Assembly (NCBI GenBank): GCA_963744145.1
Contig: CAVUSO010000001.1
Coordinates: 1,280,001 to 1,344,000, forward strand
DNA: 64,000 bases
Direction: 5' to 3'
From: an uncultured cyanobacterium
GTDB taxonomy: Bacteria; Cyanobacteriota; Cyanobacteriia; Cyanobacteriales; CAWUOF01
A model generated the notes under the pieces. It saw only the letters and a program-made list of their open reading frames with translations. It ran no database searches and was not told the origin of the DNA. This document shows, one piece after another, positions 6,755 through 23,499 of the stretch. A program made the translations under genes and the position numbers. Positions within the stretch are counted from its first letter, which is position 1. Each line of letters opens with the position of its first letter.

Positions 6755-6821
6755 ATTCTTTGCCGATATCCCCCAAAATACTCTTAAGTGAACCATATTG
6801 CCCGATAAAGGAGAAAAACTG

Positions 6822-8111
6822 ATGAGTGGTAGTCCAAAACATACCCCAGCAGAGTTAGAAAGACGAAGACAGGAACAGCTAGAAAAAGAACGACAACGTA
6901 AAGCCAAAGAAGAAGCAAGACAAAGAGCAGCAGCAGCAGAGAGAGAAAGACTTCAGCGGTTGGAGACTCTCAGAAACCAGTTAATTGCCCAAGTTCAGGC
7001 GATCGCTTCACAAGTGCAGCAACAACAAAATAATATATATAGTGAGGATGGAACAGCACTCCAGAAACGCTGTCAGAATTTGCGTGATACTCTGGGTCAA
7101 GCCCAAACCGAATCTCAACTCCAGAAGATAGCCCAAGCATCACCTCAGATTGAACAAGATTTGCATAAAGCGGTTAGTCGCAAACGTCGAGATGAGGAGG
7201 AGAAAAAGCGACGGTTAGAATTAGAAAAACAACAGTTTGAACTAGAGGAATTAGAGCGACAAATTTCTCAAATTCCTAAAGCGGATGCAACTAAATTTGA
7301 TGCTAATGGATATGCAACAGTACAGCAAGCAATTGGAACAGTAAAAACCGCGATCGCAAGTAGTAATCCGGAAAGCGTCCGCGCACCCCTAGCTAATGCT
7401 ATAAAAGCATTACAAGATCATACCAATTTAGTAATCCAACATCGAACCGAATGGCTGCAACGTAAAGCTGAAGCGGAACAAGCTATTGGTGAACTTCAAG
7501 CATTTATTGTGGGATTAAGAGCTGATCCAGTAGTGATGCGGTGGCACGGACATACTATAACTGAATTGGAAACTCAAGCACAAACAGCAGTGCAAGCCTT
7601 AGCAGCAGAACAGTTTGAGCAACCCGCCAATATTCTAGCAGTAGCCCAGACGCGAGGACAGCAAATCGTAGAAGAAGCTAATGCCGAGCAAATTAAAGCT
7701 GACCAACGGGATTATATTGCTACCAGTATTGCTCAAACCTTGCAAGACATGGGTTTTATCGTTAGTCCTCCTCAAGCTGAATATGCTGATCATCCAAAAA
7801 CAGCCATGATTTTAAAAGCAGCTACTGCTTCAGGTAAAGGAATTAGTGTCAGTGTTCCAGTAGAAGGTGAAGTCTGGTACGACGTAGATGGATATACCAA
7901 AAGTACCGAAGCAGTTGTTGGTGGTGGTAATGCTGCGGTATGCGATGAAGCGGAACAGGTTTTAACCGATATGCACACTGCTTTAGAGGCAGAATTTGGC
8001 GTTAAAATGGGTGAAATTTCTTGGGAAGGAAAAGACCCTAACCGCAAACCGCGTAAAGCGGATGGACTACCTAATAACGATCAACAGCAGGGTAGAGGAG
8101 GTAATCGATGA
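6822..8111 (+). CDS. Coiled-coil protein with a small C-terminal alpha/beta domain (possibly DUF2997-like)
   Basis: AAGGAG RBS then ATG at 6822; long E/Q/R/K heptad region; C-terminal ISVSVPVEGEVWYDVDG...VCD...LEAEFGV. Confidence 0.75.
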   Translation: MSGSPKHTPAELERRRQEQLEKERQRKAKEEARQRAAAAERERLQRLETLRNQLIAQVQAIASQVQQQQNNIYSEDGTALQKRCQNLRDTLGQAQTESQLQKIAQASPQIEQDLHKAVSRKRRDEEEKKRRLELEKQQFELEELERQISQIPKADATKFDANGYATVQQAIGTVKTAIASSNPESVRAPLANAIKALQDHTNLVIQHRTEWLQRKAEAEQAIGELQAFIVGLRADPVVMRWHGHTITELETQAQTAVQALAAEQFEQPANILAVAQTRGQQIVEEANAEQIKADQRDYIATSIAQTLQDMGFIVSPPQAEYADHPKTAMILKAATASGKGISVSVPVEGEVWYDVDGYTKSTEAVVGGGNAAVCDEAEQVLTDMHTALEAEFGVKMGEISWEGKDPNRKPRKADGLPNNDQQQGRGGNR

Positions 8112-10093
8112 ATAGCTCAACTCCCACATCTTCCCGCTGGATTCTCGAATTTGAGAAACAAGTCCATCGCCGTCTGCATATTGTTTTGTATGGTAATATT
8201 CACGACCAGTTTCTCTGGCGCGGTAATTATCAAAATATCCACGAATTTCTCACCGCATACTTTCAAGACTTAAACTTTGAGCTAATTCTTCGGTATGACC
8301 CCATAGATGGGTTTAATTTTGTCAATCCAAAAATGAGACAGGGATTTGATGAATTAGTACGAAGTGGGGTAGCTAAACGGAACCCAGATTTAGGACAAAA
8401 TCCCCCAGTACCTTCACCAGCTCCAAATCCAATGGCACCTCCTCCAAGAGCTAATCCGGGTGCTGTGGGTCCTTCCCTAAATACTAGAGTCTCACCAGAG
8501 GATGCTTTTGGTAATTTGCGAGCTGTCGTATCTCAATCTAAAACTTCAGTAGCTGCAATTGTTGATTTAGGAGATATGCTCACCTCTGATCCAAGTCGCT
8601 ATATTGCTGAAGAGCGAAACGCTTTGGTGTTACTGAATAAATGCACCCTAGAAGCATCTGTGATCAGAGAGGGGGCTTTGAGCGGTTATCGCAATACTTT
8701 GGTGATTTTAGCTAGGGATTTGAAACGGGTGCCAGAGTGGTTTCATCAAAATAATCCCTTTGTCGGGATGGTGCAAATGTCGCGTCCCAATAAAGACGAA
8801 CGATGTCAGTTTATGATGCGTTTTTTCCAGGGATTTTATGAAGGCGATCGCATCAATACTAAACGCTCTTCTCCTCAAGCACCTTCAGAGCTAGAAATTC
8901 TCGCAGAAGAATTTGCTGATCTCACCGAAGGCTTTCGAGCAATGGATTTAGATGCGTTGCGTGCGACTTCTTGGCGTGAGCGCATTCCTCTCCGTGTTAA
9001 AGAAGTCTGGCGGTTAGTGGACTTTTTTAAATTTGGTCTACGGGATGATCCTTGGGAGCAGTTAAGCCCCGAAAAAGTTCGCTCTGCTAGAGAACAACTT
9101 TCTCGCACTGTGATTGGTCAACCTCGTGCAGTTGAATCTGTTACTACTATGCTCACTAGCGCAAGGGTGGGATTGAGCATAAGTAGTAGTGGTCGTAGTG
9201 GCAAACCTAAAGGTATTTTCTTTTTTGTTGGTCCGACAGGAGTTGGCAAAACTGAACTAGCCAAAGCTATGACCAAATTAGTGTTTGGCGATGAGCGATC
9301 GTTTGTCCGTTTTGATATGAGTGAGTACAAAGAAGAACACGCGGCTGAGAAATTAGCAGGCGCTCCTCCCGGTTTTGTGGGTTATGAAGAAGGGGGACAG
9401 CTAACCAATCGCGTGATTGAGCAGCCCTATAGTATTTTGCTGTTTGATGAAATTGAAAAAGCTCATCCCAAGGTGTTAGATAAGTTTTTGCAAATTTTAG
9501 AAGATGGAAGGCTTACTGATGGTAAAGGACAGACTGCTTATTTCAACCAAACTGCAATTATTTTTACTAGCAATATCGGCGCATCGGATTTAACTGATCC
9601 TCAGACAGGTGCGATCGTTCGGTGTGGGATTATGAACAAAGTGCAGCAAGGAAATACTAATGATTTCTCTTACGAAGAGGTAGAAAATCACTTCCGAACT
9701 GAAGTAGATTGGCACTTTACCAGTCGCATTGGTCGGGCGGAACTGCTCAACCGTTTGGGTGATAATATTGTGGTATTTGACTTGCTACGTCCAGATTTTG
9801 TGACTTTAATTGGGCAGAAGTTTTTACGACAACTATCAGATACAGCTCAGGAAAAGTACCGACTCAATTTAAACTTTTTGCCTTCAGTTCTAGATGTTTT
9901 GAGGGTGCGGATGGAACAAGGTAACAATTTACTATTCGGAGGAAGACGGATTAAAACCCTTTTAGAATCATTAGTGGAACGTCCCCTCAATAGTTGGATT
10001 TTTCAAAATTGCCCTGAAACCAGTAAATTAGCAGGGGGCACATTGAGGATTGGGATGACAGTTGATGGATGTTTAGAGGTGACTCATGTTTGA
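8108..10093 (+). CDS. ClpA/ClpB-like AAA+ ATPase (one intact D2-type module, degenerate N-terminal module)
   Basis: Walker A GPTGVGKT, RFDMSEY, pore loop GAPPGFVGY, Walker B LLFDEIEK; ATGA overlap with the upstream gene. Confidence 0.9.
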   Translation: MNSSTPTSSRWILEFEKQVHRRLHIVLYGNIHDQFLWRGNYQNIHEFLTAYFQDLNFELILRYDPIDGFNFVNPKMRQGFDELVRSGVAKRNPDLGQNPPVPSPAPNPMAPPPRANPGAVGPSLNTRVSPEDAFGNLRAVVSQSKTSVAAIVDLGDMLTSDPSRYIAEERNALVLLNKCTLEASVIREGALSGYRNTLVILARDLKRVPEWFHQNNPFVGMVQMSRPNKDERCQFMMRFFQGFYEGDRINTKRSSPQAPSELEILAEEFADLTEGFRAMDLDALRATSWRERIPLRVKEVWRLVDFFKFGLRDDPWEQLSPEKVRSAREQLSRTVIGQPRAVESVTTMLTSARVGLSISSSGRSGKPKGIFFFVGPTGVGKTELAKAMTKLVFGDERSFVRFDMSEYKEEHAAEKLAGAPPGFVGYEEGGQLTNRVIEQPYSILLFDEIEKAHPKVLDKFLQILEDGRLTDGKGQTAYFNQTAIIFTSNIGASDLTDPQTGAIVRCGIMNKVQQGNTNDFSYEEVENHFRTEVDWHFTSRIGRAELLNRLGDNIVVFDLLRPDFVTLIGQKFLRQLSDTAQEKYRLNLNFLPSVLDVLRVRMEQGNNLLFGGRRIKTLLESLVERPLNSWIFQNCPETSKLAGGTLRIGMTVDGCLEVTHV

Positions 10094-11327
10094 TTTGGAA
10101 TTGCTGTGGGATCGACCCGCAAAAATTAGCTCTCAATCGACAACTCATGTGCTGCGATCGCGGATCTATCCTCAATCGGTCGGAAATGCTTTACCTAGCT
10201 TACCCCTACGGATCGCGATCGCTCTCGATACTAGCCAATCAATGCAAGGGGAAAAGCTACAATGTGCTAAGGAAGCTTGCCGTGCGGTTGTTTCTCATTT
10301 ACGTGACACAGATCGCTTATTTCTAGCAGGTTTTTCTACGAGAGTAACACCTTTACTACAATCTCTTACAGGTGGTGCTAATGCTGTTTCATCGGCTAAT
10401 ACAGCGATCGCTAGTTTGCAACCAGAGGGAGTTACTCGCACCGATTTGGCATTAGAATGGATTCAGAATGCCTTACCAAAGGAAACTGGAGTCACAAGAG
10501 TGGGGATTTTGATTACAGATGGTCATGCGACTACTCCCCAAGGTAATCTATTAGATGACGTAACGCCGCTAATTAACCAATCTAGCCAACTGAGTAGTGC
10601 TGGAATTGTGCTGTGTACTGTAGGATTAGGAGATGCAGCTAATTTTAATACAGCTTTTTTAACTGATTTGAGCGACAAGGGAAGGGGTGCGTTTCTCTAT
10701 GCTGACACACCAACTATCCTAAAATCTCTACTCCAAGAAAGACTGGCTGCTTGTCAAGCGATCGCGACGGAAGAAGCTAAACTCCGATTCACTCTAAGTT
10801 CTGGTGTTACCCTCAAAGGTTTTTGTCGTTTCCGTCCCGAATATTTACCTTTGGAAGAAACTGCAAAAAATGAATTAACACTGGGTACGATCGGAACAAA
10901 CTCCCCAACCGATGTATTAATTGACTTAGAAATTCCAGCAAGTGGTTTTGGAGAACCAATGGGTAGTCGAGAAGTAGTTTCAGTCCAGTTAACAGCTAGA
11001 GGAATGACCAACCCGATTACTAAGACAGCAGCGATTACCTATACTAATTCCTACTCAGAAGCGCAAAAAGTTAACGCTGAAGTCAATAACGATCGACTCT
11101 GTTGGGATATTAACGTTTATAGTAATGACCTAACCCGCACTAACGATCCGAAGCGCACAGGAGAATTACTAGATAATATCCAGTTTACAGCTACCCAAGC
11201 CGGACAAGCAAATATTGCGAACCAAGCAGCTCAACAGCTAGATGATCTGAAAAAGACTGGAGTATTGAACCCCCACAAATCAACTGGACTCTTGCGGGAT
11301 TCTCGAAATTTGGGAGGGACAAAATGA
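10086..11327 (+). CDS. vWA domain protein
   Basis: MIDAS LDTSQSM, ILITDG, TVGLG; overlaps the AAA stop codon. Confidence 0.9.
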   Translation: MFDLELLWDRPAKISSQSTTHVLRSRIYPQSVGNALPSLPLRIAIALDTSQSMQGEKLQCAKEACRAVVSHLRDTDRLFLAGFSTRVTPLLQSLTGGANAVSSANTAIASLQPEGVTRTDLALEWIQNALPKETGVTRVGILITDGHATTPQGNLLDDVTPLINQSSQLSSAGIVLCTVGLGDAANFNTAFLTDLSDKGRGAFLYADTPTILKSLLQERLAACQAIATEEAKLRFTLSSGVTLKGFCRFRPEYLPLEETAKNELTLGTIGTNSPTDVLIDLEIPASGFGEPMGSREVVSVQLTARGMTNPITKTAAITYTNSYSEAQKVNAEVNNDRLCWDINVYSNDLTRTNDPKRTGELLDNIQFTATQAGQANIANQAAQQLDDLKKTGVLNPHKSTGLLRDSRNLGGTK

Positions 11328-11728
11328 ATAGTGGTTTTGGGATCGACCCCATTCCTGGGTTATCTCGACTTACCCCGGATAATGCTAAGTTACTATTATT
11401 AAACGGACCAGCAGCAGCAAGTCGGTTTCCTCTTCATCGAATACGATCGCTGATTGGTCGGAATGATCTACCTTTGATAACAGTAGATATTGATCTAACT
11501 GAATGCGAAATTGGCGATCCAATTGCTATATCTCGTCGTCATGCAGTGATTGAGTGGGTAGAAGGGGAATTACAAATTGTGGATTTGTGCAGTAGGAACG
11601 GTACTTTTGTTGATGGTCAAAAATTGACAGCGATCGCTCCTAATCAACCATCAGCTCCTGTCATTTTAAAAGCGGGAAGTAAGGTAAAACTAGGAAACTT
11701 GGAATTTGAGGTGATCACTCATGGATAA
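11324..11728 (+). CDS. FHA domain protein
   Basis: IGR...ISRRHA...DLCSRNGTFVDG; ATGA overlap. Confidence 0.92.
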   Translation: MNSGFGIDPIPGLSRLTPDNAKLLLLNGPAAASRFPLHRIRSLIGRNDLPLITVDIDLTECEIGDPIAISRRHAVIEWVEGELQIVDLCSRNGTFVDGQKLTAIAPNQPSAPVILKAGSKVKLGNLEFEVITHG

Positions 11729-12518
11729 GCCGATTGTAAAACTAGCCTACGGTTCCAAAACCGATCCTGGCAAAATTCGTAAAATCAATGAAGATAATCT
11801 TTTATTAGAATCATGGTCAGATGCTTTACTAGCAGTAGTTGCTGATGGAATGGGAGGACATAAAGGAGGAGAGGTAGCAGCCAAAATTGCCGTTGATACT
11901 TTTCGAGAGTTATTAGATCAGCCCTTACCTAAAGAACCTGTTGAACGATACGAACAACTGTTAAAAAAATTTTATGATGCTGATACTGCTATCCGCGAGC
12001 AATCCTCTCAAGAGTTCAGATTGATGGATATGGGAACTACTTTAATGGCAGCGATCGTTACTCCCACAGAATATATTCATCTATATGCTGGTGACTGTCG
12101 TTTATATCACTTCCACCAGGGAGAATTTACTTATATCTCGGCTGATCATTCAGTAGTCAGGATACTGCAAAACTTGGGAAAGATCACCCCAGAAGAAGCA
12201 GCTACTCATCCAATGCGTTCAGTGGTCAACTCCTGTCTAGGTGGTAAGGGAAATACACAATTCTCTGTTGACCCAAAATGGGACGATGAAAAGTTACCTG
12301 TGTTGCGTGAATTATGTCCAGGTGATGTATTACTACTATGCAGCGACGGACTAAATAGCGAAGTAAGTGACAATCAGTTACAAAATTTGGTGCAACAGTC
12401 TGGAAACTCGACCGAAGAACTGACTAAAGCTTGTGCCGAAGCAGCTTTAGAGCATGGTGGTAAAGATAATATTACAGTTATTGCTATTCAGGTACAGGAG
12501 GAAGATCAGCAAAAATAA
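11721..12518 (+). CDS. PP2C (PPM) Ser/Thr phosphatase
   Basis: RKINED, VADGMGG, MGTT, AGDCR, LLCSDGL, GGKDNIT. Confidence 0.93.
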   Translation: MDKPIVKLAYGSKTDPGKIRKINEDNLLLESWSDALLAVVADGMGGHKGGEVAAKIAVDTFRELLDQPLPKEPVERYEQLLKKFYDADTAIREQSSQEFRLMDMGTTLMAAIVTPTEYIHLYAGDCRLYHFHQGEFTYISADHSVVRILQNLGKITPEEAATHPMRSVVNSCLGGKGNTQFSVDPKWDDEKLPVLRELCPGDVLLLCSDGLNSEVSDNQLQNLVQQSGNSTEELTKACAEAALEHGGKDNITVIAIQVQEEDQQK

Positions 12519-12575
12519 GACAAAATTATCAGCAGAAATAGATAGCAAACTTTAACTAATTGGATTGAAAAGTAT

Positions 12576-14000
12576 ATGAACAATGAGCAACTATACCGAC
12601 GAATGTTGGAAGGACAATGGGTCAATGGACAATATCATCTCAAAAAACTCCTGGGAGCAGGAAGTTACGGAGTAGTTTTTCAAGCAGATGAAGTAGTCGG
12701 AAATCGCCTAGTTCGAGAAGTAGCTATTAAACTAATTTCTCCCAATGATGATGATCGCGATCTCCAGCTCCAAGAATTAATTGATGCAGTTAATTTAGAT
12801 CACCCCAATTTAGTGCGATGCTTTACTTCTGGTTTAGTTAAACTCAACGGAGTTGAATTTTTATATTTAGTCATGGAGCTAGCCCAAAAAACTCTCGCTA
12901 AACATTTAGAAAAAAGCTCTTTGTCTGTAGGAGAAGTGCAAAAAATCGTCCAGGAAATTGCTGCTGGATTAGTTTATCTTCATCGTGAACCCCATCCGCG
13001 AGTGCATCGTGATTTGAAACCAGCTAATGTCCTATGGGTAAGCGATCGCTGGAAATTATCAGATTTTGGGTTATTGCGGTCAACTGGTTCTAAGGGTTCA
13101 GCTCGCACCAGTAAAGTTAGGAGAACTGACGGTTATGCTCCCCCAGAAGCTTATCTCGGAGTGGTGGCTCCCACTTGGGATGTGTGGTCATTAGGGGTGA
13201 TCATGGTGGAAATGCTCACGGGACAGCTACCCTTTACAGGAGATACAGAGCAGGAATTGATCGTAAAAGTAATGGACGGAAAACCATCAATCGAATGGTC
13301 AAAAGTCCACCAATCATTCAGAGAGATCATCAAGGGAGCTTTAGAGAAAGAGCGGAAAGACCGATGGACGGCACAAAGGGTGCTGAATACTTTTACCAAA
13401 AAATATCTCCCTCCAACCATCCCATCTATTGTGAGTCCATTTCCTGGGAAAATAGAAATAGGACAGAATCCTTTTACCGCAAAAGGTATCCCTCTATTTG
13501 ACCCAACTCCAAGCATAGTGAGTCAGCCTCCTGTGCAATTGAAGTCAGCAAAAGGGGTAGATTACACTAATTTACAACGCTTACTAGCCGCAGGAAAATG
13601 GAAGGAAGCGGATGAGGAAACAGGCAAAAAAATGTGCGAGGTCATGGGGCGACAAAAAGAAGGTTGGCTAGATGTCGAACATATCGATAATTTTCCCTGT
13701 GAAGACCTTCGCACAATTGATCAACTTTGGGTAAAATCTAGTAACGGTCATTTTGGCTTTTCTGTGCAAAAGCGTATCTATCAAAGTCTCGGTGGAACCC
13801 GGAACTATGATGAGAAAATCTGGGCTGCTTTTGGCGATCGCGTCGGCTGGAGGAAAAATGGAGACTGGATATACTACAGCGACCTCACCTTCTCAACCAA
13901 ATCTCCCGGTGGCCACCTCCCCTTGTGGTGGGGGAAAGGTCCGTGTGTGGTGGTTGGTGCCTCTTCTCTCGCGTCGAGACTTGTAGACTGTAACATATAA
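12576..14000 (+). CDS. Hanks-type Ser/Thr kinase with C-terminal GUN4-like domain (copy 1)
   Basis: LGAGSYG, VAIK, HRDLKPAN, DFG, APPE; GUN4-like motifs YTNLQRLLAAGKWKEADEET, DLRTIDQLW, GHFGFSVQ, GHLP. Confidence 0.92.
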   Translation: MNNEQLYRRMLEGQWVNGQYHLKKLLGAGSYGVVFQADEVVGNRLVREVAIKLISPNDDDRDLQLQELIDAVNLDHPNLVRCFTSGLVKLNGVEFLYLVMELAQKTLAKHLEKSSLSVGEVQKIVQEIAAGLVYLHREPHPRVHRDLKPANVLWVSDRWKLSDFGLLRSTGSKGSARTSKVRRTDGYAPPEAYLGVVAPTWDVWSLGVIMVEMLTGQLPFTGDTEQELIVKVMDGKPSIEWSKVHQSFREIIKGALEKERKDRWTAQRVLNTFTKKYLPPTIPSIVSPFPGKIEIGQNPFTAKGIPLFDPTPSIVSQPPVQLKSAKGVDYTNLQRLLAAGKWKEADEETGKKMCEVMGRQKEGWLDVEHIDNFPCEDLRTIDQLWVKSSNGHFGFSVQKRIYQSLGGTRNYDEKIWAAFGDRVGWRKNGDWIYYSDLTFSTKSPGGHLPLWWGKGPCVVVGASSLASRLVDCNI

Positions 14001-14008
14001 AGCTTACA

Positions 14009-14245
14009 AAAAATTGTTACATTTTGTAAATACACGATTTCCCACGAAGCCATGCGCCTTCTAGCTTTCCGATACCTGGCACCGACGCCGAGCGAAGTAC
14101 CGACAGTTATTCTGTAGTTTTCTGTAGTATCTGACCCACTACTTCGGGGTTATAACAATTAGCAATGACAAATTTATCAGCCACAGCTAAGATATCTGGA
14201 TTCATTTCCTCAAAATCAGCCCAAGGTAAATTCTTTTCATCTCTT
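14009..14245 (-). pseudogene. 3' remnant of a convergent unknown gene
   Basis: Minus strand reads RDEKNLPWADFEEMNPDILAVADKFVIANCYNPEVVGQ, then about 50 extra nt containing a stop, then PGIGKLEGAWLRGKSCIYKM*. A homologous remnant lies after kinase 3. Confidence 0.5.
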
Positions 14246-14339
14246 TAATAAGCTCGCGATCGGTGTTGGTGGTGGATGGCGATCGGTGTTTAAAGATTTT
14301 TAATAGGTCGCGATCGGTGTTTCCAATAATCAGTTAATT

Positions 14340-14698
14340 GTAGGGGCGAAGCATTCGGGCGACAATTAATCGCATAAAACTTTACCCTGAGCGGAGTCGA
14401 AGGGCAGTAATATTATATCCGAATGCTGATGCCGTAGGCATCGCTACGCGAACGCCCTTCTTCGCCGATATCTCCCAAAACATTCTTAATTGAACCGGAT
14501 TGATATATCATTAATTGAACCGGATTTATATATTAATTGAACCGGATTTATATATTAATTGAACCGGGTTTATATATTAATTGAACCGGATTTATATATA
14601 GTTGATCTGTTGGTTGCATAGATGGTGAGGGCAAAGCATTTCGGTAATGGTTTCTTCGTTTCAGCGATAATTTCTTCGCCGAAATGCTTTGCCCCTAC
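14340..14698. repeat. Composite REP-like module: hairpin A + 5x TTAATTGAACCGG.TT.ATAT + inverted hairpin B
   Basis: GTAG at both outer ends facing inward; hairpin B is GGGCAAAGCATTTCGG...CCGAAATGCTTTGCCCCTAC. Confidence 0.85.
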
Positions 14699-14922
14699 AG
14701 GGAACCGAATCGGATTGTGTTTTCTTATATAGATCGATATTAAATATAATAAATGATGTTTTATTGCGATCGCGTTATGTCTTGAATTGGCGGCGATCGC
14801 AGTTAGATAACTAATTAACTGAAACAAGCGATCGCCAATTCCAGTAATCAGAATCTAATCACTATTGTTGGTGGATGGTGATGGCGTTGGCGTGATAATT
14901 TTCATTGACAGTTGAGTTCTTT

Positions 14923-15164
14923 GTAGGGGCGAAGCATTCGGGCGACAATTTATCGCATAAAACCAATAACATTTTATCCGAATGCTTCGCCCTTCTTCGC
15001 CGATATCTCCCAAAACATTCTTAATTGAACCGGGTTTATCTATTAATTGAACCGGATTTATATATAGTTGATCTGTTGGTTTCATGGATGGTGAGGGCAA
15101 AGCATTTCGGTAATGGTTTCTTCGTTTCAACGATAATTTCTTCGCCGAAATGCTTTGCCCCTAC
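14923..15164. repeat. Composite REP-like module (2 central units)
   Basis: Same A + tandem + B layout as 14340-14698. Confidence 0.85.
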
Positions 15165-15339
15165 AGGGAACCGAATCGGAGTATTGTTATATAGATCGAT
15201 ATTAAATATAATAAATGATGTTTAATTGCGATCGCGTTATGTCTTGAATTGGCGGCGATCGCAGTTAGATAAATAATTTTTGTTAAAATTAGAATATTTA
15301 TAGATTTTTGCTTCTTGTAAGTCTATGGATCTATGGGTG

Positions 15340-15369
15340 TTGATATTTTCGGTTATTCAGGTATATAGT
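15340..15369 (+). promoter_or_regulatory. Putative sigma70-type promoter
   Basis: TTGATA-N18-TATAGT immediately before the structured segment. Confidence 0.4.
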
Positions 15370-15377
15370 AAAGTTAA

Positions 15378-15543
15378 CCATCCGACCTAAACGCATTAAT
15401 ACGAGGGTTTACCATGAGTTTCGACTCACATCGACTCCCAGTGTGCGCTTCCTTCGGTTCCTCCTTTCGACGACCCTCAGAGTAAACGAGCAGGTAAGCG
15501 AACGGGCACACGCAGGTTATGTTTATCCATGTAGGTCGGACTG
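15378..15543. ncRNA. Putative structured RNA or DNA hairpin element, family unknown
   Basis: GC-richer than its flanks; closed by TCCGACCTA/TAGGTCGGA; contains the hairpin TGAGT-TTCG-ACTCA and a long bulged GTGTGC...GCACAC stem. Confidence 0.4.
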
Positions 15544-15594
15544 CGATCGCTCTTAACCGTTTCCTTGAAGTTAACAACAACAAAAACTAAATTT

Positions 15595-15774
15595 ATGGAA
15601 AAAGTTGTATTCAAAACTACTAATAAACAACAACCTACTGACTTTGCTTACTGGCAAAAACAAACGCCTCAAAAACGTTTAGACACTCTCGAACAAATCC
15701 GCCAAGAATATCATCAATATAAATATAATGCTCAACCAAGATTTCAAAGAATTTATACAATTATTAAACGATAA
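15595..15774 (+). CDS. Small protein (59 aa), putative partner of the downstream nucleotidyltransferase
   Basis: DFAYWQKQTPQKRL...RFQRIYTIIKR; overlaps the nucleotidyltransferase start. Confidence 0.6.
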   Translation: MEKVVFKTTNKQQPTDFAYWQKQTPQKRLDTLEQIRQEYHQYKYNAQPRFQRIYTIIKR

Positions 15775-15990
15775 TCAGGTTAAATACCTGGTTATTGGTG
15801 GTTATGCTGTGGCAATTCATTAGTTACTTCACCTGATGGAGTAGATTTTCAAACTTGCTATGATTCAAAAATGGAGTTTATTATTGATGAGATGATGATT
15901 AAATTTATCGATCTTGATAATCTCATAAAAAATAAATTAGCATCGGTTAGACTTCAGGATTTGGCAGATTTAGAAAATTTACAGAACTAA
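15728..15990 (+). pseudogene. Nucleotidyltransferase (TA-associated type) with internal deletion and stop
   Basis: MLNQDFKEFIQLLNDNQVKYLVIGGYAVAIH*, then TSPDGVDF...DNLIKNKLASVRLQDLADLENLQN*. The catalytic RxTxDxD segment expected after the GG motif is missing. Confidence 0.7.
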
Positions 15991-16031
15991 TTATTGCACA
16001 ATCAATTTGAATAAATTGAGCGAAAAAGTCT

Positions 16032-17456
16032 ATGAACAATGAGCAACTATGGCGAATGTTAGCAGGAGAATGTGTCAACGGACAATATCACCTCAAAAAA
16101 CTCCTGGGTGTCGGCAGTTACGGCGCAGTTTTTCAAGCAGATGAAGTGGTCGGCGATCGCCTAGTTCGAGAAGTAGCTATTAAGATAATTTCCCCAGATA
16201 ATGATGAAAAAACCCGCGATCGCCAGCTCCAAGAATTGATTGTCGCGGTTAATTTAGATCACCCGAATTTAATCCGTTGTTTTGCTCCAGGGTTAGCTCA
16301 AATTAAAGGATTTGAATTTTTGTATTTGCTAATGGAGTTAGCAGAAGAAACCCTCGCTAAACGTCTAGAAAAAAGTTCTTTGTCATTGGAAGAAGTACAG
16401 AAAATAGTTCAAGAAATAGCTGCCGGATTAGTTTATCTTCATCGTGAACCCCATCCGAAAGTACATCGTGATTTGAAGCCCGCTAATGTACTACGAGTGG
16501 GCGATCGCTGGAAATTATCAGATTTTGGCTTATTGCGCTCAATCGATTCTCAGGGTTCAGCTCGCACTAGTAAAGGTCAGGGAACTAACGGCTATGCTCC
16601 CCCAGAAGCTTATGATGGAGTAGTTGCTCCAGCTTGGGATGTGTGGTCATTAGGAGTAATCATGGTGGAACTGCTCACGGGACAGCTACCCTTTACAGGA
16701 GATACAGAGCAGGAATTGCTCAAAAAAGTAATGGAGGGTAAACCATCAATCGAATGGTCAAAAGTCCACCAATCATTCAGAGAGATGATCAAGGGAGCTT
16801 TAGAGAAAGAGCGGCAAAACCGATGGACGGCAGAAATGGTGCTGAATACTTTTACCAAAAAAGATCTCCCTCCAACTACCCCATCCATTGAGAGTCAGCC
16901 TCCTTTGCAATTGAAGTCAGCAAAAGGAGTAGACTACACTAATTTACAACGCTTACTAGCCGCAGGGAAATGGAAAGAAGCGGATGAGGAAACAAGCAAA
17001 AAAATGTGCGGGGTCATGGGGCGACAAGAAGAAGGTTGGTTAAGAAGCGAAGATATTGATAATTTTCCCTGCGAAGACCTTCGCACAATTGATCAACTTT
17101 GGGTAAAATCTAGTAACGGTCATTTTGGCTTTTCTGTGCAAAAGCGCATCTATCAAAGTCTCGGTGGAACCCGGAACTATGATGAGAAAATTTGGGAAGC
17201 TTTTGGCGATCGCGTTGGCTGGAGGAAAAATGGAGCTTGGATATACTACAGTGACCTCACTTTCTCAACCACTTCTTTGGTGGGCCATATCCCTGGGTTA
17301 CCACTTCTTTGTTTGGAGGGCTATCTCCCTGTTGTATTGGTGGTGAGTGTTTGGATAGGTAAAGAGGTTTTTTGGGTTGTCTCTTCTCTCGCGTCGAGAC
17401 TTGTAGACTCTTCTCCAAGCCAGGCGCATTCTGATTCAGATATCATCCTATTGTAA
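16032..17456 (+). CDS. Ser/Thr kinase-GUN4 protein (copy 2)
   Basis: Same motifs as copy 1; different linker and tail. Confidence 0.92.
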   Translation: MNNEQLWRMLAGECVNGQYHLKKLLGVGSYGAVFQADEVVGDRLVREVAIKIISPDNDEKTRDRQLQELIVAVNLDHPNLIRCFAPGLAQIKGFEFLYLLMELAEETLAKRLEKSSLSLEEVQKIVQEIAAGLVYLHREPHPKVHRDLKPANVLRVGDRWKLSDFGLLRSIDSQGSARTSKGQGTNGYAPPEAYDGVVAPAWDVWSLGVIMVELLTGQLPFTGDTEQELLKKVMEGKPSIEWSKVHQSFREMIKGALEKERQNRWTAEMVLNTFTKKDLPPTTPSIESQPPLQLKSAKGVDYTNLQRLLAAGKWKEADEETSKKMCGVMGRQEEGWLRSEDIDNFPCEDLRTIDQLWVKSSNGHFGFSVQKRIYQSLGGTRNYDEKIWEAFGDRVGWRKNGAWIYYSDLTFSTTSLVGHIPGLPLLCLEGYLPVVLVVSVWIGKEVFWVVSSLASRLVDSSPSQAHSDSDIILL

Positions 17457-17459
17457 TAA

Positions 17460-17740
17460 TACCGTGATCGGTGTTAGGGGTGGATGGTGATCGCAGTTTA
17501 ACGATTTTCAATAATAAGATCGCGATCGGTGTTTCCGGTAATCAAAATCTAATTGCTGTTAGTGGATGGCGATCGCAGGTTGACGATTTTAATAATAAGA
17601 CAATCTTAAATTGAATCAATCTATCATCATAAATTTGGATAATAAATGACATTTAAGCGCGATCGCATTATGTCTTTAATTGCAGGCGATCGCAGTTTAA
17701 CGATTTTCACGGTTGTCGCGATCGGTGTTTCCAATAATCA
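17460..17740. repeat. Degenerate HIP1-centred short repeats
   Basis: Recurring GCGATCGGTGTT / GTGGATGGCGATCGCAGTTT.ACGATTTT units; similar units at 14254-14335. Confidence 0.6.
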
Positions 17741-17747
17741 GTTAATT

Positions 17748-18063
17748 GTAGGGGCGAAGCATTCGGGCGACAATTAATCGCACAAAACTTTACCCTGAGC
17801 GGAGTCGAAGGGCAGTAACATTATATCCGAATGCTTCGCCCTTCTTCGCCGATATCTCCCAAAACATTCTTAATTGAACCGGATTTATATATCATTAATT
17901 GAACTGGATTTATATATCATTAATTGAACCGGATTTATATATTAATTGAACCGGATTTATATATAGTTGATCTGTTGGTTGCATAGATGGTGAGGGCAAA
18001 GCATTTCGGTAATGGTTTCTTCGTTTCAGCGATAATTTCTTCGCCGAAATGCTTTGCCCCTAC
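17748..18063. repeat. Composite REP-like module (4 central units)
   Basis: Near-identical to 14340-14698. Confidence 0.85.
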
Positions 18064-18226
18064 AGGGAACCGAATCGGATTGTGTTTTCTTATATAGATC
18101 GATATTAAATATAATAAATGATGTTTAATTGCGATCGCATTATGTCTTTAATTGGCGGCGATCGCAGTTAGATAACTAATTATCTGCTAAAATAAGAAAG
18201 AAGTCAACCACTATTAAAGTTCCTCA

Positions 18227-19235
18227 ATGCAAGACAAACCCCGCGCCGACTACGATAGTCCTTGGAAAGAAGCCATTAACAGTTACTTTGAACCTTTCAT
18301 GAATTTTTTCTTTCCGGTCATCCATCAAGAAATCGACTGGACAAAAGGCTATGAAACCTTAGATGCAGACTTACAAGAAGTCGTAAGAGATGCAGAAACG
18401 GGGAATCGTTTAGCCGATAAGCTCGTGAAAGTTTGGTTAAATCATAGCACCCAGGAAATTTTAATCCTGGTGCATATCGAAATCCAAGGAGGAGTAGATC
18501 CGAACTTTGCGAAACGGATGTTTATCTACAATCACCGTTTATTTGACCGATACGATCGAGAAGTGATTAGTTTAGCAGTATTAGGAGATGAGCAAAAATC
18601 CTGGCGTCCCAATAGTTATGGTTATGCAATGTGTGGATTTAGTAGCCAATTGCAGTTTCCCATCGTCAAACTCTTAGACTACCAAGAACAATGGGAGTTG
18701 CTTGAACAAAGCACTAATCCTTTTGCTGTAATTGTCATGGCACATTTAACTGCAAAGGAAACCACCAGAGATCCACAAAGAAGATTACAAGGGAAACTCA
18801 GCATAGTGCGGGGGCTATATGAACGGGGCTATAATAGGGAGGAAATCAAGCGAACTATTTCGGTTAATTGACTGGATGATGGTATTACCAGACCAGCTAG
18901 AACAGGATTTTCGGGTGGAATACAAACGGTTTCAGGAGGAAAATCAAGTGCCATATATCACCAGTATTGAACGTTTAGCGAAAGCAGAAGGTAGAGAAGA
19001 AGGCTTAGAAGAAGGGATCGAACAAGGAATCGAACAAGGAATCGAACGAGGCAGTGTACAAACAGCACAGGAAAATATCATCACAGTGTTGGAGACTAGG
19101 TTTGGAGAAGTACCAGAAATCTTCAGAGAGCGGATTAATCAAATCGAAGATTTAGCCACATTAAGACAACTTCTCATTCGTGGCATTACGATCGCTTCTT
19201 TCGAGGATTTTGAGCAAGAAATCTCTTCAAATTAG
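18227..19235 (+). pseudogene. Rpn/transposase_31-like protein, frameshifted near 18848
   Basis: DYDSPWKE...HIEIQG...RMFIYNHR, continuing in another frame as ELFRLIDWMMVLP...EEGIEQG...LETRFGEVP; one extra A in GAAATCAAGCGAA. Confidence 0.8.
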
Positions 19236-19376
19236 TCACTAGGTTCTAGTTAATTCCCCTATTGGGTTGAGGGGCGATCGCTATTTATCTGCTCTGATAT
19301 AGAGATTTAGATGCGATCGCCTCTTCTCACAAAATACCACCCCGAGACAAATTGAATAAATTGATCGAAAAATCCT

Positions 19377-20699
19377 ATGAACAATGAGCAACTGTGGCGA
19401 ATGTTGACAGGAGAATGTGTCAATGGACAATATCACCTCAAAAAACTCCTGGGCGTCGGCAGTTACGGCGCAGTTTTTCAAGCGGATGAAGTTGTTGGCG
19501 ATCGCTTAATTCGCCAAGTAGCTGTTAAGCTAATTTCTCCAGATGGAGATGATAAAAATCGCGATCGCCAGCTCCAAGAATTAATTACTGCCGTTAATCT
19601 AGATCACCCGAATTTAGTACGCTGCTTTACTTCAGGGTTAGCTGAAATCAAAGGATTTGAATTTTTGTATTTAGTCATGGAGTTAGCAGAAGAAACCCTC
19701 ACCAAAAGTCTTTCAGAAAAAAGCTCTTTGTCTGTGGGAGAAGTGCAAAAAATAGTTGAGGAAATAGCTTCAGCATTGGTTTATCTTCATCATGAACCCG
19801 AGCGGAGAGTACATCGCGATTTGAAACCAGCTAATGTACTAAGAGTAGGCGATCGCTGGAAATTATCAGATTTTAGCTTATTGCGGTCAATCGGTTCTAA
19901 GGGTTCAGCTCGCACCAGTAAAGGTCAGGGAACTAACGGCTATGCTCCTCCAGAAGCTTATGATGGAGTAGTTGCTCCAGCTTGGGATGTGTGGTCATTA
20001 GGAGTAATCATGGTGGAACTGCTCACGGGACAGCCACCCTTTACAGGAGATACAGAGCAGGAATTGATCAAAAAAGTCATGGAGGGTAAACCATCAATCG
20101 AATGGTCAAAAGTCCACCAATCATTCAGAGAGATGATCAAGGGAGCTTTAGAGAAAGAGCGGAAAGACCGATGGACGGCAGAAATGGTGTTGAATACTTT
20201 TAAAGAGCGCCCGACCATATTACCGTCAGCAGATTACCAAAAGTTAGAAAGCTTACTAGCCGCAGGAAAATGGGAAGAAGCTGATCAGGAAACAGCAAAA
20301 AAAATGTGCGCGGTAATGGAGCGAGAAAAAGAAGGTTGGCTAAGACCCGAAGATATTGATAATTTTCCCTGCGAAGACCTTCGCACAATTGATCAACTTT
20401 GGGTACATTATAGCAATGGTCATTTTGGCTTTTCCGTGCAGAAGCGGATCTATCAAAGTCTGGGTGGAACTTGCAACTACGATCAAAACATTTGGACTGC
20501 TCTTGGCGATCGCGTTGGTTGGAGGCAAAATGAACAATGGCTATACTACAATGATCTCACATTCTCAGTCGAAAATTCTCCCGAAGGCCATCTTCCATTG
20601 GGAGTGAGAAAAGCGATTTGGCGCGGTTGTGGTTTTGCAGGTTGGTTTGGTCTTTGTGGCACTTCTCTCGCGTCGAGACTTGGAGATTGTAACATCTAA
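19377..20699 (+). CDS. Ser/Thr kinase-GUN4 protein (copy 3; DFG changed to DFS)
   Basis: Kinase and GUN4-like motifs; LSDFSLL; short linker. Confidence 0.9.
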   Translation: MNNEQLWRMLTGECVNGQYHLKKLLGVGSYGAVFQADEVVGDRLIRQVAVKLISPDGDDKNRDRQLQELITAVNLDHPNLVRCFTSGLAEIKGFEFLYLVMELAEETLTKSLSEKSSLSVGEVQKIVEEIASALVYLHHEPERRVHRDLKPANVLRVGDRWKLSDFSLLRSIGSKGSARTSKGQGTNGYAPPEAYDGVVAPAWDVWSLGVIMVELLTGQPPFTGDTEQELIKKVMEGKPSIEWSKVHQSFREMIKGALEKERKDRWTAEMVLNTFKERPTILPSADYQKLESLLAAGKWEEADQETAKKMCAVMEREKEGWLRPEDIDNFPCEDLRTIDQLWVHYSNGHFGFSVQKRIYQSLGGTCNYDQNIWTALGDRVGWRQNEQWLYYNDLTFSVENSPEGHLPLGVRKAIWRGCGFAGWFGLCGTSLASRLGDCNI

Positions 20700-20716
20700 G
20701 ACTTTCAGACAATTTT

Positions 20717-20820
20717 TAGATTTTATGAATACAATATTTTTCACGAAGCCATCTGCTTGATTTCTTTCCGATACCTGAATGATCCACGACTTGGGGGTTA
20801 TAACAATTAGCGATCGCATT
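20717..20820 (-). pseudogene. 3' remnant of a convergent unknown gene (second copy)
   Basis: Minus strand AIANCYNPQVVDHSGIGKKSSRWLREKYCIHKI*, homologous to the remnant after kinase 1. Confidence 0.5.
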
Positions 20821-20937
20821 TTATCTCTTTGTTAATAAGATTGCGATCGCTGTTTCGGGTAATCAGAATATAATCACTGTTATTGGTGGATGGCGATGGC
20901 GTTGCCGTGATAATTTTCATTGATAGTTCAGTTACTT

Positions 20938-21290
20938 GTAGGGGCGAAGCATTCGGGCGACAATTAATCGCACAAAACTTTACCCTGAGCGTTCCCTGAG
21001 CGGAGTCGAAGGGCGGAGTCGAAGGGCGGAGTCGAAGGGCAGTAATATTATATCCGAATGCTTCGCCCTTCTTCGCCGATATCTCCCAAAACATTCTTAA
21101 TTGAACCGGATTGATATATCATTAATTGAACCGGATTGATATATCATTAATTGAACCGGGTTTATCTATTAATTGAACCGGATTTATATATAGTTGATCT
21201 GTTGGTTTCATCGATGGTGAGGGCAAAGCATTTCGGTAATGGTTTCTTCGTTTGGGCGATAATTTCTTCACCGAAATGCTTTGCCCCTAC
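20938..21290. repeat. Composite REP-like module (4 central units; 13-bp GGCGGAGTCGAAG triplicated in the loop of hairpin A)
   Basis: Same A + tandem + B layout. Confidence 0.85.
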
Positions 21291-21350
21291 AGGGAACTGA
21301 ATCGGCTGGTGTTTTCTCCTATAGATCGCTATTAAATTGAATTAATCTAT

Positions 21351-21958: not shown

Positions 21959-22096
21959 TCACTAGGATCTAGTTAATTCCAATATTGGGTTGAGGAGCGA
22001 TCGCAATTTATCTGCTCTTATATAGAGATTTAGATGCGATCGCCTCTTCTCAAAATACACCCCGATACAAATTGAAGAAATTGAGCGAAAAAGTCT

Positions 22097-23488: not shown

Positions 23489-23499
23489 ACATCAAAACA

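Follow-up and report, generated by a model that had tools for sequence, protein, structure and literature searches.

The 38-nt stretch that ends the first of four kinase–GUN4 genes in the window (the whole 64,000-nt stretch of cyanobacterial DNA analyzed here) is the 5′ edge of a module that follows GUN4-like sensor domains at their 3′ end and is conserved as nucleotide sequence. The explanation that we favor, to which we give roughly even chances, is that this stretch, hereafter the anchor, is the frame-neutral 3′ border of a localized tail-diversification cassette, with a Y1 enzyme as the candidate actor. That the anchor opens a conserved module leading into a convergent Y1 gene is new here, and the combination of a three-frame anchor, a tail of free length, and an adjoining transposase-like gene points to an undescribed way of varying the tail of a protein. 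The features of the window are as follows.

12576-14000, plus strand: copy 1, a Ser/Thr kinase + GUN4 gene of 474 aa (ORF), with the anchor in frame 0 and the ending SSLASRLVDCNI before the stop.
13911-13922, plus strand: 5′ border of the tail, codons GGC CAC CTC CCC (G-H-L-P), where homology to solved GUN4 structures ends.
13923-13958, plus strand: G/T-rich tail of copy 1, 36 nt as defined by script (window comparison).
13960-14000, plus strand: anchor of copy 1, with Ser-Arg in all three frames, a mini-palindrome, and staggered stops.
14001-14082, plus strand: non-coding continuation of the module, ending in TTTCCGATACCTGGCAC (14066-14082), from a consensus of 123 sequences and an alignment of 40.
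14107-14229, minus strand: decayed 3′ end of a convergent Y1 (IS200/RAYT-like) transposase gene (tblastn).
16032-17456, plus strand: copy 2, with its tail at 17295-17378 and its 19-mer at 17385-17403, frame 0.
19377-20699, plus strand: copy 3, with its tail at 20598-20657 and its 19-mer at 20664-20682, frame 0; the downstream module runs to ~20790.
22097-23488, plus strand: copy 4, with its tail at 23351-23460 and its 19-mer at 23467-23485, frame 2.

The four Ser/Thr-kinase–GUN4 genes lie in tandem, each with a G/T-rich tail of a different length. All four score 147-154 bits against the GUN4 model PF05419 (gathering cut-off 29.2), and in each the match stops at profile position 124-129 of 141, which is GHLP. 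Canonical GUN4 (the Mg-chelatase cofactor; PDB 1Y6I and 1Z3X) likewise resembles the window domain through GHLP inclusive (E 4.8e-25 and 6.5e-22), where the similarity ceases; these structures have no tail-plus-anchor ending to align. In the available text of Kaur et al. (PMC7159879), a sensing role is put forward for GUN4 domains as a suggestion only. Copy 1, with Pfam matches to Pkinase (E 1.5e-42) and GUN4 (E 3.5e-45), also matches almost the whole PADLOC model PDLC04062 of the PD-T4-6 anti-phage Ser/Thr kinases (E 2.2e-69; protein residues 19-473, profile positions 33-448 of 450). Judged by this HMM match alone, copy 1 fits the PD-T4-6 defense kinase family at full length; none of the PD-T4-6 descriptions seen mentions a tail or an anchor. 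Anchor-bearing GUN4-like domains occur in cyanobacterial signaling or defense proteins, in fusions with kinase, caspase, CHAT, NACHT/AAA, or TPR domains.

The anchor of copy 1 (window positions 13960-14000) reads CCTCTTCTCTCGCGTCGAGACTTGTAGACTGTAACATATAA. Its coordinates and letters are those given in a preliminary description of this DNA, which was also right that stops fall in all three frames within 17 nt (TAG 13984-13986, TAA 13991-13993, and TAA 13998-14000), and the mini-palindrome that it claimed was located at 13967-13979 (TCTCG 13967-13971, CGT 13972-13974, and CGAGA 13975-13979). The 19-mer TCTCTCGCGTCGAGACTTG occurs four times in the window, at 13965, 17385, 20664, and 23467, always on the plus strand, and none of 100 shuffles matched it, even at three mismatches. 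In copies 1-4, the 19-mer lies 42, 90, 66, and 116 nt from the Pro codon of GH[LI]P, corresponding to phases 0, 0, 0, and 2. Copies 1-3 do read the anchor as S-L-A-S-R-L and copy 4 reads it in another phase as L-L-S-R-R-D-L-stop, as had been described; the phase difference behind the 114-nt insert reported for copy 4 is therefore real, while the length itself depends on the insert start chosen. In copy 2, the module breaks off after ~17409, so that all three stops are lost and the ORF extends to 17456. Copy 4 ends in …SLLSRRDL (stop 23486-23488), and a repeat element cuts its module directly behind the anchor.

An exact scan of species genomes found the 19-mer in at least 121 loci, nearly all of them cyanobacterial and from many orders; this set was chosen by the 19-mer, whose invariance within it is by construction. 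Among the matches listed, 114 of 126 anchors could be assigned to a GUN4 end, and these 114 are distributed over the three phases as 36/44/34. Again among the matches listed, 105 of the 114 ORFs end at the staggered stop of their own frame, at +33 (34 ORFs), +26 (39, plus 1 that stops nearby at +29), or +19 (32), and besides the one at +29, four stop inside the tail and four read through. To obtain an unbiased census, we took 150 representatives of 50%-identity clusters and assigned an ending type at no more than two mismatches in seven residues. Their 136 domain ends comprised 17 SLASRLV-type, 20 FSRVETC-type, and 22 LLSRRDL-type endings, 76 others, many of them recognizably diverged versions, and 1 truncated end; all three endings were also present in the best 120 homologs. 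The three peptide endings, which the preliminary description had placed among cyanobacterial GUN4-like proteins, are thus found there and are about equally common. Since all three are widespread among homologs, copy 4 is neither an isolated frameshift nor an assembly error, either of which had been named among the conditions refuting the three-frame reading.

As the fetched flanks held only three extra GUN4 ends, a plasmid sample was used for an unbiased comparison at the DNA level. The exact 19-mer is present in none of the 14 plasmid GUN4 ends, six of which score at least 15 against the module consensus, with three more recognizable as peptides. These ends use all three frames, and their replacements are conservative in the frame in use. 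Since the peptide of each frame evolves conservatively in its own lineage, the anchor is, on this comparison, coding sequence as well as a DNA element.

Selection on the peptide is accompanied by conservation where nothing is translated: positions +22 to +35 are 82-85% conserved in genes already stopped at +19, against 89-91% where they are translated. The variation is not limited to the third positions of one frame, contrary to the other refuting condition that had been named. Together with this conservation, the phases and the staggered stops bear out the proposal of an anchor conserved at the DNA level that can be read in every frame and closes the protein whatever the tail length. Median pairwise identity is 0.75 over +19 to +55 and 0.66 over +55 to +125, compared with 0.53 for shuffled sequences and 0.66 for GUN4 coding DNA. 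Ser-Arg is encoded in three frames within 13 nt of the anchor, which 2 of 200000 shuffles achieve. A self-match at a shift of 7 nt (18/35 positions; reached by 7 of 20000 shuffles, or by 225 of 20000 for the best of 14 shifts) is the reason why frames 0 and 1 yield the same pattern, [F/A]-S-R-[V/L]-x-x-C-x-[L/I]-stop. The stops stand one per frame, at +19, +26, and +33. Since tail length is unrestricted, translation reaches the module in each of the three frames in one gene or another. The left border favors particular codons: across loci, its Leu is encoded by CTC in 50 of 67 cases (89 of 717 for Leu in the rest of the domain) and its His by CAC in 50 of 64 (18 of 41 for His elsewhere). This synonymous-codon constraint and the conservation of the untranslated module would need a reader at the DNA level.

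Between these borders, from the GHLP codons to the module, the G/T-rich tails measure 34-217 nt, and their lengths follow no triplet rule. The tails are, judging by their stops, translated, because the frame in use has only 4 stops in 2217 codons, whereas the two others have 96 (2183 codons) and 126 (2141 codons); an open tail was found in 107 of 110 cases, where 46.9 would be expected. In one locus, L015, the tail is untranslated, with a stop directly behind AHLPGG followed by ~95 nt of nearly pure G/T. The tails show no codon periodicity, their base composition being equal at all three codon positions, and resemble one another no more than shuffled sequences do (identity 0.44 vs 0.46). Both properties argue for new sequence rather than shuffled old sequence. 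A donor for the four window tails was not found within the 64-kb window, where the longest matches (10-12 nt) equal those of shuffled controls, and no G/T gradient was seen along the tail.

Turnover of the tail is sharply bounded. Among 19 locus pairs at least 93% identical over the last 200 nt of the domain, tail identity is 0.27-0.67 in 15 and at least 0.93 in 4. Tails can be unalignable even where the gene flanks are 95-98% identical, and they are replaced wholesale. Thus, L052 and L065, two syntenic Floridaenema loci, are 0.93-0.98 identical in the 60-nt windows that flank the tail and 0.47 in the tail window, and a like pattern, with a divergent tail between near-identical flanks, was found in the Microcystis loci L037, L038, L092, and L114. 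Several tails are stable across strains and species, four of nine informative 90% clusters being invariant. Given these invariant clusters and the four near-identical pairs that share their tails, any process that changes tails would have to be episodic, not continuous.

The module runs ~50-125 nt beyond the anchor into the 3′ end of a convergent Y1 (HuH) gene. In the window, this gene is reduced to a 40-residue remnant (tblastn of residues 237-276 of the intact L059 protein against 14229-14110, E 1.6e-05), and a 32-aa ORF lies at 14107-14205 inside the remnant region. Intact homologs stand at the corresponding place in loci L015, L038, L047, L052, L059, and L065; those of L059, L047, and L015 match Pfam Y1_Tnp (PF01797) at E 1e-18 to 2e-20, and the family shows the HuH (NHVH) and Tyr (YIHANP) motifs. 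Among the matches listed, Y1 homology lies downstream of 24 of 122 anchors and GUN4 upstream of 113 of 122, and Y1 similarity is near full length in 8 of 75 loci with enough flank. Six of these eight hold intact ORFs of 256-271 aa, which differ from each other mostly at third positions (e.g., 58/36/143). Where intact, the Y1 gene is, on such sequence comparisons, under purifying selection; in most loci, the window included, it is decayed or lost. Starting from the Y1 side, we fetched five plasmid loci and excluded the fifth, which had only a partial Y1; in 4 of 4, the Y1 gene is convergent with a GUN4-type gene bearing a diverged anchor. A Y1-positive locus of this kind, L137, is found on plasmid pNPUN02 of Nostoc punctiforme. 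The linkage of anchor and Y1 is, in these samples, reciprocal. Every named source of the best 120 Y1 relatives is cyanobacterial, many having no name, and the family, with 66-86% identity to the L059 protein, seems to be cyanobacteria-wide.

Under the diversification reading, a process acting on the DNA would write the tail within limits set by two cis borders, with CAC-CTC-CC to its left and the anchor to its right; service as the right-hand border would be why the anchor has been retained as DNA and shaped to frame neutrality. The Y1 enzyme would be the most likely agent, acting in cis or in trans from one intact copy. Enzymes of the Y1 type make site-specific nicks in single-stranded DNA, next to small hairpins, and are able to reseal them. 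If the DNA were nicked where tail and anchor meet, G/T-rich sequence could be added by slipped or untemplated synthesis, or cassettes could exchange strands, before the nick is closed again, which would produce the pattern observed; additionally, whole terminal GUN4 cassettes (domain, tail, and anchor) may swap between alleles and paralogs. The anchor may also be the recognition site of the diversifying enzyme, as the preliminary description had proposed, and the convergent Y1 gene contiguous with it is a concrete candidate for that enzyme.

The alternative of a passive origin, which we consider rather unlikely, holds that an unstable, G-quadruplex-prone, G/T-rich tail changes by slippage, local duplication, and deletion, that its flanks are homogenized by gene conversion among paralogs and serve as homology arms for cassette swapping, and that the Y1 gene is an old neighbor or hitchhiker without a role. 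Frame neutrality would then result from frequent frameshifting indels upstream, with the loss of genes whose read-out was harmful. Several observations fit this account. Microcystis kinase alleles that are otherwise 97-100% identical have exchanged whole terminal GUN4 cassettes, and in five of the nine informative 90% clusters, members carry discrete, differing endings and also differ in residues of the domain. The within-species polymorphism seen alters the whole terminal GUN4 domain, a change that recombination alone could produce. The tail of copy 2 opens with a local duplicate of the GHIP border, read GYLP; 42 of 114 tails carry at least four runs of G3 or longer; and an intact Y1 is absent from most loci. 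The idea that tails are purer in G/T where Y1 is near full length was abandoned, the median purity being 0.79 in 7 such loci vs 0.755 in the other 106, and this independence from the Y1 state also suits a passive origin. Against it, Tandem Repeats Finder (minimum score 30) detected no repeat inside any of the four window tails, and tails are exchanged whole between sharp borders, not by small steps. Their composition and lack of mutual similarity favor new sequence, and the left-border codons and the conserved untranslated positions appear to require a DNA-level reader. A Y1 gene under purifying selection and reciprocally linked to the anchor is likewise not what a hitchhiker would suggest.

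It is improbable, in our view, that the anchor is simply the end of an ordinary IS200/IS605-type element inserted in GUN4 tails, its frames and stops being accidental. A Y1_Tnp gene contiguous with the anchor would be expected in that case, as would the graded series observed, from full-length elements to "solo ends", with similarity breakpoints that cluster, among the matches listed, at +50 to +69 (29/122) and +100 to +129 (38/122); 5 of 122 anchors among the matches listed are solitary, without a GUN4 gene. The association is, however, almost exclusive from both sides, and it persists where the GUN4 domain is only ~35-45% identical to that of the window, the anchors having co-diverged. A second or displaced anchor beyond Y1, sought in nine loci including those with intact copies, gave best scores of 8-13, which is noise; inverted repeats around four Y1 genes showed nothing recurrent, and no terminal inverted repeat, second module copy, or convincing hairpin was found in the loci searched. 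An accidental insertion would also not explain why tails are purged of in-frame stops up to the anchor, why the peptides change conservatively in each frame and lineage, as functional coding sequence does, or why Ser-Arg appears in three frames so far from chance.

A cause at the RNA level or on the opposite strand seems very improbable. It could be a terminator or structured 3′ UTR, an antisense RNA, or a small antisense gene such as the 59-aa ORF on the minus strand at 13874-14053, which overlaps the gene end; the ~125 nt of conserved non-coding sequence after the stops and the antisense ORFs that start near the conserved TGTAACAT in the window and in L015 would be consistent with it. A search of window positions 12000-24500 against Rfam at E up to 1 returned no relevant family, with one chance miRNA-family match, and RNAalifold on the plus strand of 40 module sequences showed no covariation and no structure besides the invariant 5-bp mini-hairpin. 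Each DNA strand of four loci, folded as a single strand, gave z-scores of -1.8 to +1.1. An antisense gene over the tails was rejected, stops occurring at 2.3-2.8% per codon in all three antisense frames with none spared, and the Y1 remnants read the conserved downstream motif in different frames. A suspected CTGTAAC...GTTACAG hairpin was not kept, many copies having GTTTCAG.

Finally, that only frame 0 (SLASRLVxCNI) is functional and the other frames are frameshifted pseudogenes or sequencing errors is scarcely credible: diverged family members do mostly resemble the frame-0 pattern, and AlphaFold2, run on frames 0 and 2, gave a 5-residue helix for the frame-0 ending alone (mean pLDDT 69 over the anchor block, vs below 50 for the tail and anchor of frame 2), but all three frames are used at similar frequency in both samples, a conserved stop exists for each of them, nearly all tails lack stops in the frame used, and the frame-1 and frame-2 endings are conserved over many strains and species and evolve conservatively.

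Among known systems, diversity-generating retroelements (DGRs) also confine variation to the C-terminal part of a ligand-binding domain, with a conserved DNA element (IMH) directly 3′ of the variable region, as the anchor is 3′ of the tail, and with an accessory enzyme gene near the target 3′ end and further targets dispersed in the genome. In the available portions of two reports (PMC7517822, PMC7159879), DGR targets lie in similar cyanobacterial multidomain proteins and GUN4 is listed among the domains. A DGR was nevertheless rejected for the GUN4 tails: a Pfam scan of the 27 window ORFs of at least 134 aa revealed no reverse transcriptase, and the 64-kb window holds no template repeat, tail matches elsewhere being at the shuffled level. 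DGRs make adenine-specific substitutions in a copy of a fixed-length template, whereas GUN4 tails are unalignable, vary in length, and do not keep the frame, and the recurrent neighbor in related GUN4 loci is a Y1 HuH protein.

That protein shares the Y1_Tnp domain with HuH and Tyr motifs with the IS200/IS605 and RAYT/REPIN systems, and in these motifs it is similar to subclass 2.1 as listed in PMC6006769 (Table 1), as far as that table is available. Further likenesses are a short palindrome plus a GTAG/GTAA tetranucleotide near the 3′ end of the Y1 gene and the many module copies that retain only the end. The GUN4-linked Y1 stays below the NCBI cut-offs for RAYT (68.8 and 68.4 bits vs 80) and IS200 (25.1 vs 55). 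Besides the Y1 HuH transposase, IS200/IS605 elements have paired ends with subterminal hairpins, which were not found in the loci searched, and copies at unrelated sites, whereas 113 of the 122 anchors among the matches listed lie behind a GUN4 domain. Instead of the inverted REP pairs of RAYT/REPIN systems, the loci searched have a single module on one side only, inside or abutting coding sequence. The GUN4 3′ end is moreover a fixed partner, and selection on the protein extends to the "end", which is translated.

A bolder version of the diversification reading, which we advance tentatively as a possibility we would sooner doubt than accept, is a reverse transcriptase-independent "junctional diversification" in bacteria, in which a domesticated Y1 HuH nuclease nicks single-stranded DNA where tail and anchor meet in genes of GUN4-bearing defense and signaling proteins, G/T-rich sequence is written without template or strands are exchanged between cassettes, and the DNA is resealed. 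The downstream border would then give an acceptable C-terminus and a stop in every frame, so that no event would be wasted. The analogy is with V(D)J junctional diversity, where D segments are readable in three frames and the machinery derives from a domesticated transposase; the GUN4 tails likewise are variable-length, G-rich, apparently untemplated inserts between conserved coding borders. The proteins and organisms are unrelated, and the GUN4 tails lack recombination signal pairs. Their downstream border is itself frame-neutral, so that no junction is out of frame, and the tail changes described here are differences between loci and alleles, whereas those of V(D)J junctions are somatic. If the junctional version is true, it would be a prokaryotic counterpart, in concept, of V(D)J N-region diversity.

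Contingency loci offer another comparison. They produce phase variation by simple-sequence repeats, the length of the tract altering the downstream frame, and changes in GUN4 tail length also shift the frame of the following sequence. Such a locus was rejected here, since a tandem short-unit tract is absent from the four window tails: GUN4 tails are not simple repeats and are replaced rather than lengthened by units, and the anchor gives a finished protein in all three frames, without on/off switching.

If the diversification reading is correct, these loci would offer natural DNA selected for a usable protein ending in all three frames; the literature, to the extent of the text available, contains no description of three-frame endings for GUN4 proteins or tyrosine transposases, the sole peptide match being an unrelated proteome listing. 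They would also reveal a sharply bordered hypervariable tail on the sensor domain of cyanobacterial conflict systems (kinases, caspases, CHAT, NACHT, and TPR proteins), the place where recognition of changing targets such as phage proteins would be expected. "REP-less" Y1 transposase relatives, an enigmatic class, would gain a concrete partner site, and DGRs would be joined by a second mechanism through which bacteria diversify proteins in a targeted way. In the bloom formers Microcystis, Planktothrix, and Dolichospermum, the tails occur as polymorphic alleles.

The window carries four tandem paralogues encoding Ser/Thr kinase-GUN4 fusions and, upstream of them, an operon:

6798-12518: operon upstream of the kinase-GUN4 genes, encoding a 437-aa protein without a family hit, a ClpB-like AAA+ ATPase, vWA, FHA and a PP2C phosphatase
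12576-14000, + strand: Ser/Thr kinase-GUN4 fusion, copy 1
16032-17456, + strand: Ser/Thr kinase-GUN4 fusion, copy 2
19377-20699, + strand: Ser/Thr kinase-GUN4 fusion, copy 3
22097-23488, + strand: Ser/Thr kinase-GUN4 fusion, copy 4

The operon gave weak PADLOC candidate-system matches (PDC-M37B, DolB and PDC-M21C), and it is in keeping with the vWA-centred conflict systems that Kaur et al. 2020 (PMC7159879) describe. Positions 43996-54840 contain a second tandem family, made up of four dCache-HAMP histidine kinase paralogues (699-726 aa).

The four kinase-GUN4 copies share ~80-92% DNA identity through the GUN4 domain. Past the G-H-[L/I]-P codons, similarity is gone for 36 to 110 nt (the tail) and is followed by an identical block (the anchor) containing the 19-mer TCTCTCGCGTCGAGACTTG, which matched four times in the window and never in 100 shuffles. 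Re-reading the window sequence confirmed all anchor coordinates of the preliminary description, as well as its frame difference: copies 1-3 enter the block as …SSLASRL…, and copy 4, in another frame, ends …SLLSRRDL-stop. The SLASRL frame of copy 4 has stops just upstream of the block, so this ending is not a single-base error. In copy 2 the border segment is duplicated at the start of the tail (…GHIP… followed by …GYLP…, 17295-17330), and the module of this copy (anchor plus conserved downstream continuation) departs ~6 nt past the 19-mer (17404-17456), where the three stops are gone and the protein is 17 residues longer.

Among the best 120 homologues, from Microcystis, Nostoc, Planktothrix, Nodularia, Dolichospermum and others, the three endings were all common, and their variants co-varied exactly as one DNA read in three frames (…VKCNI with …CKM-stop, …VNCNI with …CKL-stop). 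Their occurrence in cyanobacterial GUN4-like proteins, already put forward in the preliminary description, was borne out by an unbiased sample for which the domain alone was used to retrieve 150 cluster representatives (50% identity). The 136 domain ends of this sample comprised 17/20/22 of the three types, 76 others, many of them visibly diverged versions, and one truncated end. Scanning one genome per species for the exact 19-mer gave at least 121 loci and at least 122 matches, a set selected by that 19-mer. Nearly all the matches listed were cyanobacterial, from many orders, and a GUN4 domain lay ≤450 nt upstream in 113 of the 122 anchors listed; the other nine were two remnants, one contig edge, five solo modules and one chance match inside an unrelated GC-rich gene (L054).

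Two loci from MAGs labelled Cyanobacteriota and Candidatus Sericytochromatia (L010 and L013) share one gene end, down to a 94-nt tail without differences, which could reflect transfer or a binning artefact. At another locus (L063, 2501-2675), an anchor pair 156 nt apart encloses a linker and the first GUN4 codons (…ELKSAK…), apparently the result of a second-domain deletion in a two-domain gene. Where a homologue (among P0002-P0121) contains two to four GUN4 domains, a tail and an anchor are present at the end of the internal ones as well; there the stops are removed, and translation goes on via a linker to the domain that follows. A pair of Planktothrix alleles (P0033 vs P0279/P0282) differs in just this respect, with …IFSRVETCRL-stop in one form and …IFCRVETVECNDIQPQ… followed by a second domain in the other.

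Of 126 listed anchors, the window's four among them, 114 could be assigned to a GUN4 end, and frame statistics were drawn from these. With frames 0, 1 and 2 standing for the SLASRL-, FSRVETC- and LLSRRDL-type endings, anchor phase was 36/44/34. The stop used was +33 in 34 of these listed ORFs, +26 in 39, +29 in one and +19 in 32; four ended inside the tail and four read through. Plasmid GUN4 ends were chosen by domain only (n=14): none contained the exact 19-mer, six scored ≥15 against the module and three more were recognisable. All three frames were present among them, and changes were conservative in the frame used (e.g., YSRIESC, SSFMSRVINCNV and LLTRADL). Variation was thus not confined to the third positions of a single frame, with copy 4 as an isolated case, the outcome that the preliminary description had set against its own reading. 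By this pattern of substitution, each of the three anchor frames behaves as real coding sequence. AlphaFold2 modelled the frame-0 ending as a short helix with moderate confidence; its model of the frame-2 ending was not confident.

Conservation starts abruptly ~5 nt ahead of the 19-mer and extends beyond the stops. Where a gene has already ended at +19, conservation of positions +22 to +35 is still 82-85%, vs 89-91% in genes translating them; the anchor is therefore under DNA-level constraint plus a smaller coding constraint. Ser-Arg codons occur in three frames within 13 nt of the block, a configuration matched by 2 of 200,000 shuffles. The block is also self-similar at a 7-nt shift (18/35 positions; reached by 7/20,000 shuffles, or 225/20,000 with the best of 14 shifts), and frames 0 and 1 therefore give the same pattern, ending Cys-x-[L/I]-stop. 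No RNA family, covariation or significant fold was found for the module. Across 25 loci, median pairwise DNA identity was 0.66 in the domain, 0.44 in the tail (0.46 shuffled), and 0.75 and 0.66 in two downstream stretches (0.53 shuffled).

Tails at the loci listed are 34-217 nt long (median 63), with a composition of A 0.17, C 0.11, G 0.42 and T 0.30. Stops occupy 4/2217 codons in the used frame vs 96/2183 and 126/2141 in the others, and 107 of 110 distinct tails are open vs 46.9 predicted by mononucleotide shuffles, from which we conclude that the tails are translated. Their base composition is equal at the three codon positions, unlike that of the adjacent domain, and they do not resemble coding sequence with a long evolutionary history. 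At one locus (L015), the gene stops directly past AHLPGG with ~95 nt of almost pure G/T still ahead of the anchor; the tail is therefore a DNA feature in the first place. A repeat search found no tandem repeats in the window's tails, and no donor for them was found in the 64-kb window. A 59-aa antisense ORF (13874-14053, - strand) lies across the copy 1 tail and anchor, and L015 has a similar one; a selected antisense ORF was rejected, as no antisense frame is spared of stops across loci.

Both borders of the tail are sharp. Of 19 locus pairs ≥93% identical in the domain's last 200 nt, four share a tail and 15 have unrelated tails, differing in length and often in phase. At syntenic loci of two Floridaenema species, identity is 0.93-0.98 in the 60-nt windows to either side and drops to 0.47 in the 52-nt window covering the tail, with breakpoints precisely at the Pro codon and the anchor; the pattern recurs at four Microcystis loci. 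In its codon choice, the left border is constrained as DNA too, with Leu encoded by CTC in 50/67 cases vs 89/717 elsewhere and His by CAC in 50/64 vs 18/41. Within species, five of nine informative 90% clusters contain several discrete endings in different frames and four are invariant, so change is episodic. In the five polymorphic clusters the whole terminal GUN4 domain differs, which amounts to cassette swapping.

The conserved module runs ~125 nt to the motif TTTCCGATACCTGGCAC and then into the 3' end of a convergent gene. Where intact, this Y1 gene encodes a 256-271-aa protein with a Y1_Tnp domain and the motifs NHVH and YIHANP, scoring under the NCBI cut-offs for both RAYT and IS200. Remnants are detectable at 24 of the 122 listed anchors, and the window has a 40-residue one behind copy 1; near-full-length similarity was found at 8 of 75 listed loci with enough flank, with an intact ORF in six of the eight. 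Intact copies differ mostly at third codon positions. For an approach from the Y1 side, five plasmid loci were fetched, and one whose Y1 is partial was excluded. In all four analysed, the Y1 gene converges on a GUN4-type gene bearing a diverged anchor, the partners being CHAT, AAA-like or "GUN4 domain" proteins; one of the four is interrupted by an ISL3 element. Among the best 120 Y1 relatives, many carry no source name, and every name given is cyanobacterial. The loci searched around Y1 genes yielded neither a second end nor an inverted repeat, and no gene end displaced beyond the Y1 gene.

At the sequence level, these comparisons establish a frame-neutral, DNA-conserved 3' module that follows a translated, length-free and rapidly replaced tail with two sharp borders, and whose linkage to a conserved Y1 gene is reciprocal. 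On the favoured reading, the module would serve a localized diversification process as its cis border on the right-hand side, with the Y1 enzyme as the putative agent. The main rival is passive instability combined with gene conversion, the Y1 gene being a bystander. Chance read-through into the end of an ordinary IS accounts poorly for the exclusivity of the association, for the co-divergence and for selection at the protein level. GUN4 is placed among the domains of cyanobacterial conflict and DGR-target proteins by Kaur et al. 2020 (PMC7159879) and Vallota-Eastman et al. 2020 (PMC7517822), and the available text of the two papers does not mention the tail or anchor; our literature search found no description of either.

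A 22-25-nt tandem unit, TTAATTGAACCGGATTTATATA, forms arrays in the spacers behind the kinase-GUN4 genes (14486-14599, 15021-15065, 17870-17964 and 21097-21191), and a related sequence adjoins the copy 4 anchor (about 23489-23560) in place of the remaining module; the unit looks like a small mobile repeat. ORFs between the paralogues (18227-19235 and 21363-21958, + strand), split or truncated in the window, begin like a 347-aa ORF beside the intact Y1 gene of L015 (3505-4548). The inter-paralogue ORFs matched neither Pfam nor NCBIfam at the thresholds used, and they may be similar to the Rpn/PD-(D/E)XK "putative transposase" family of cyanobacteria.
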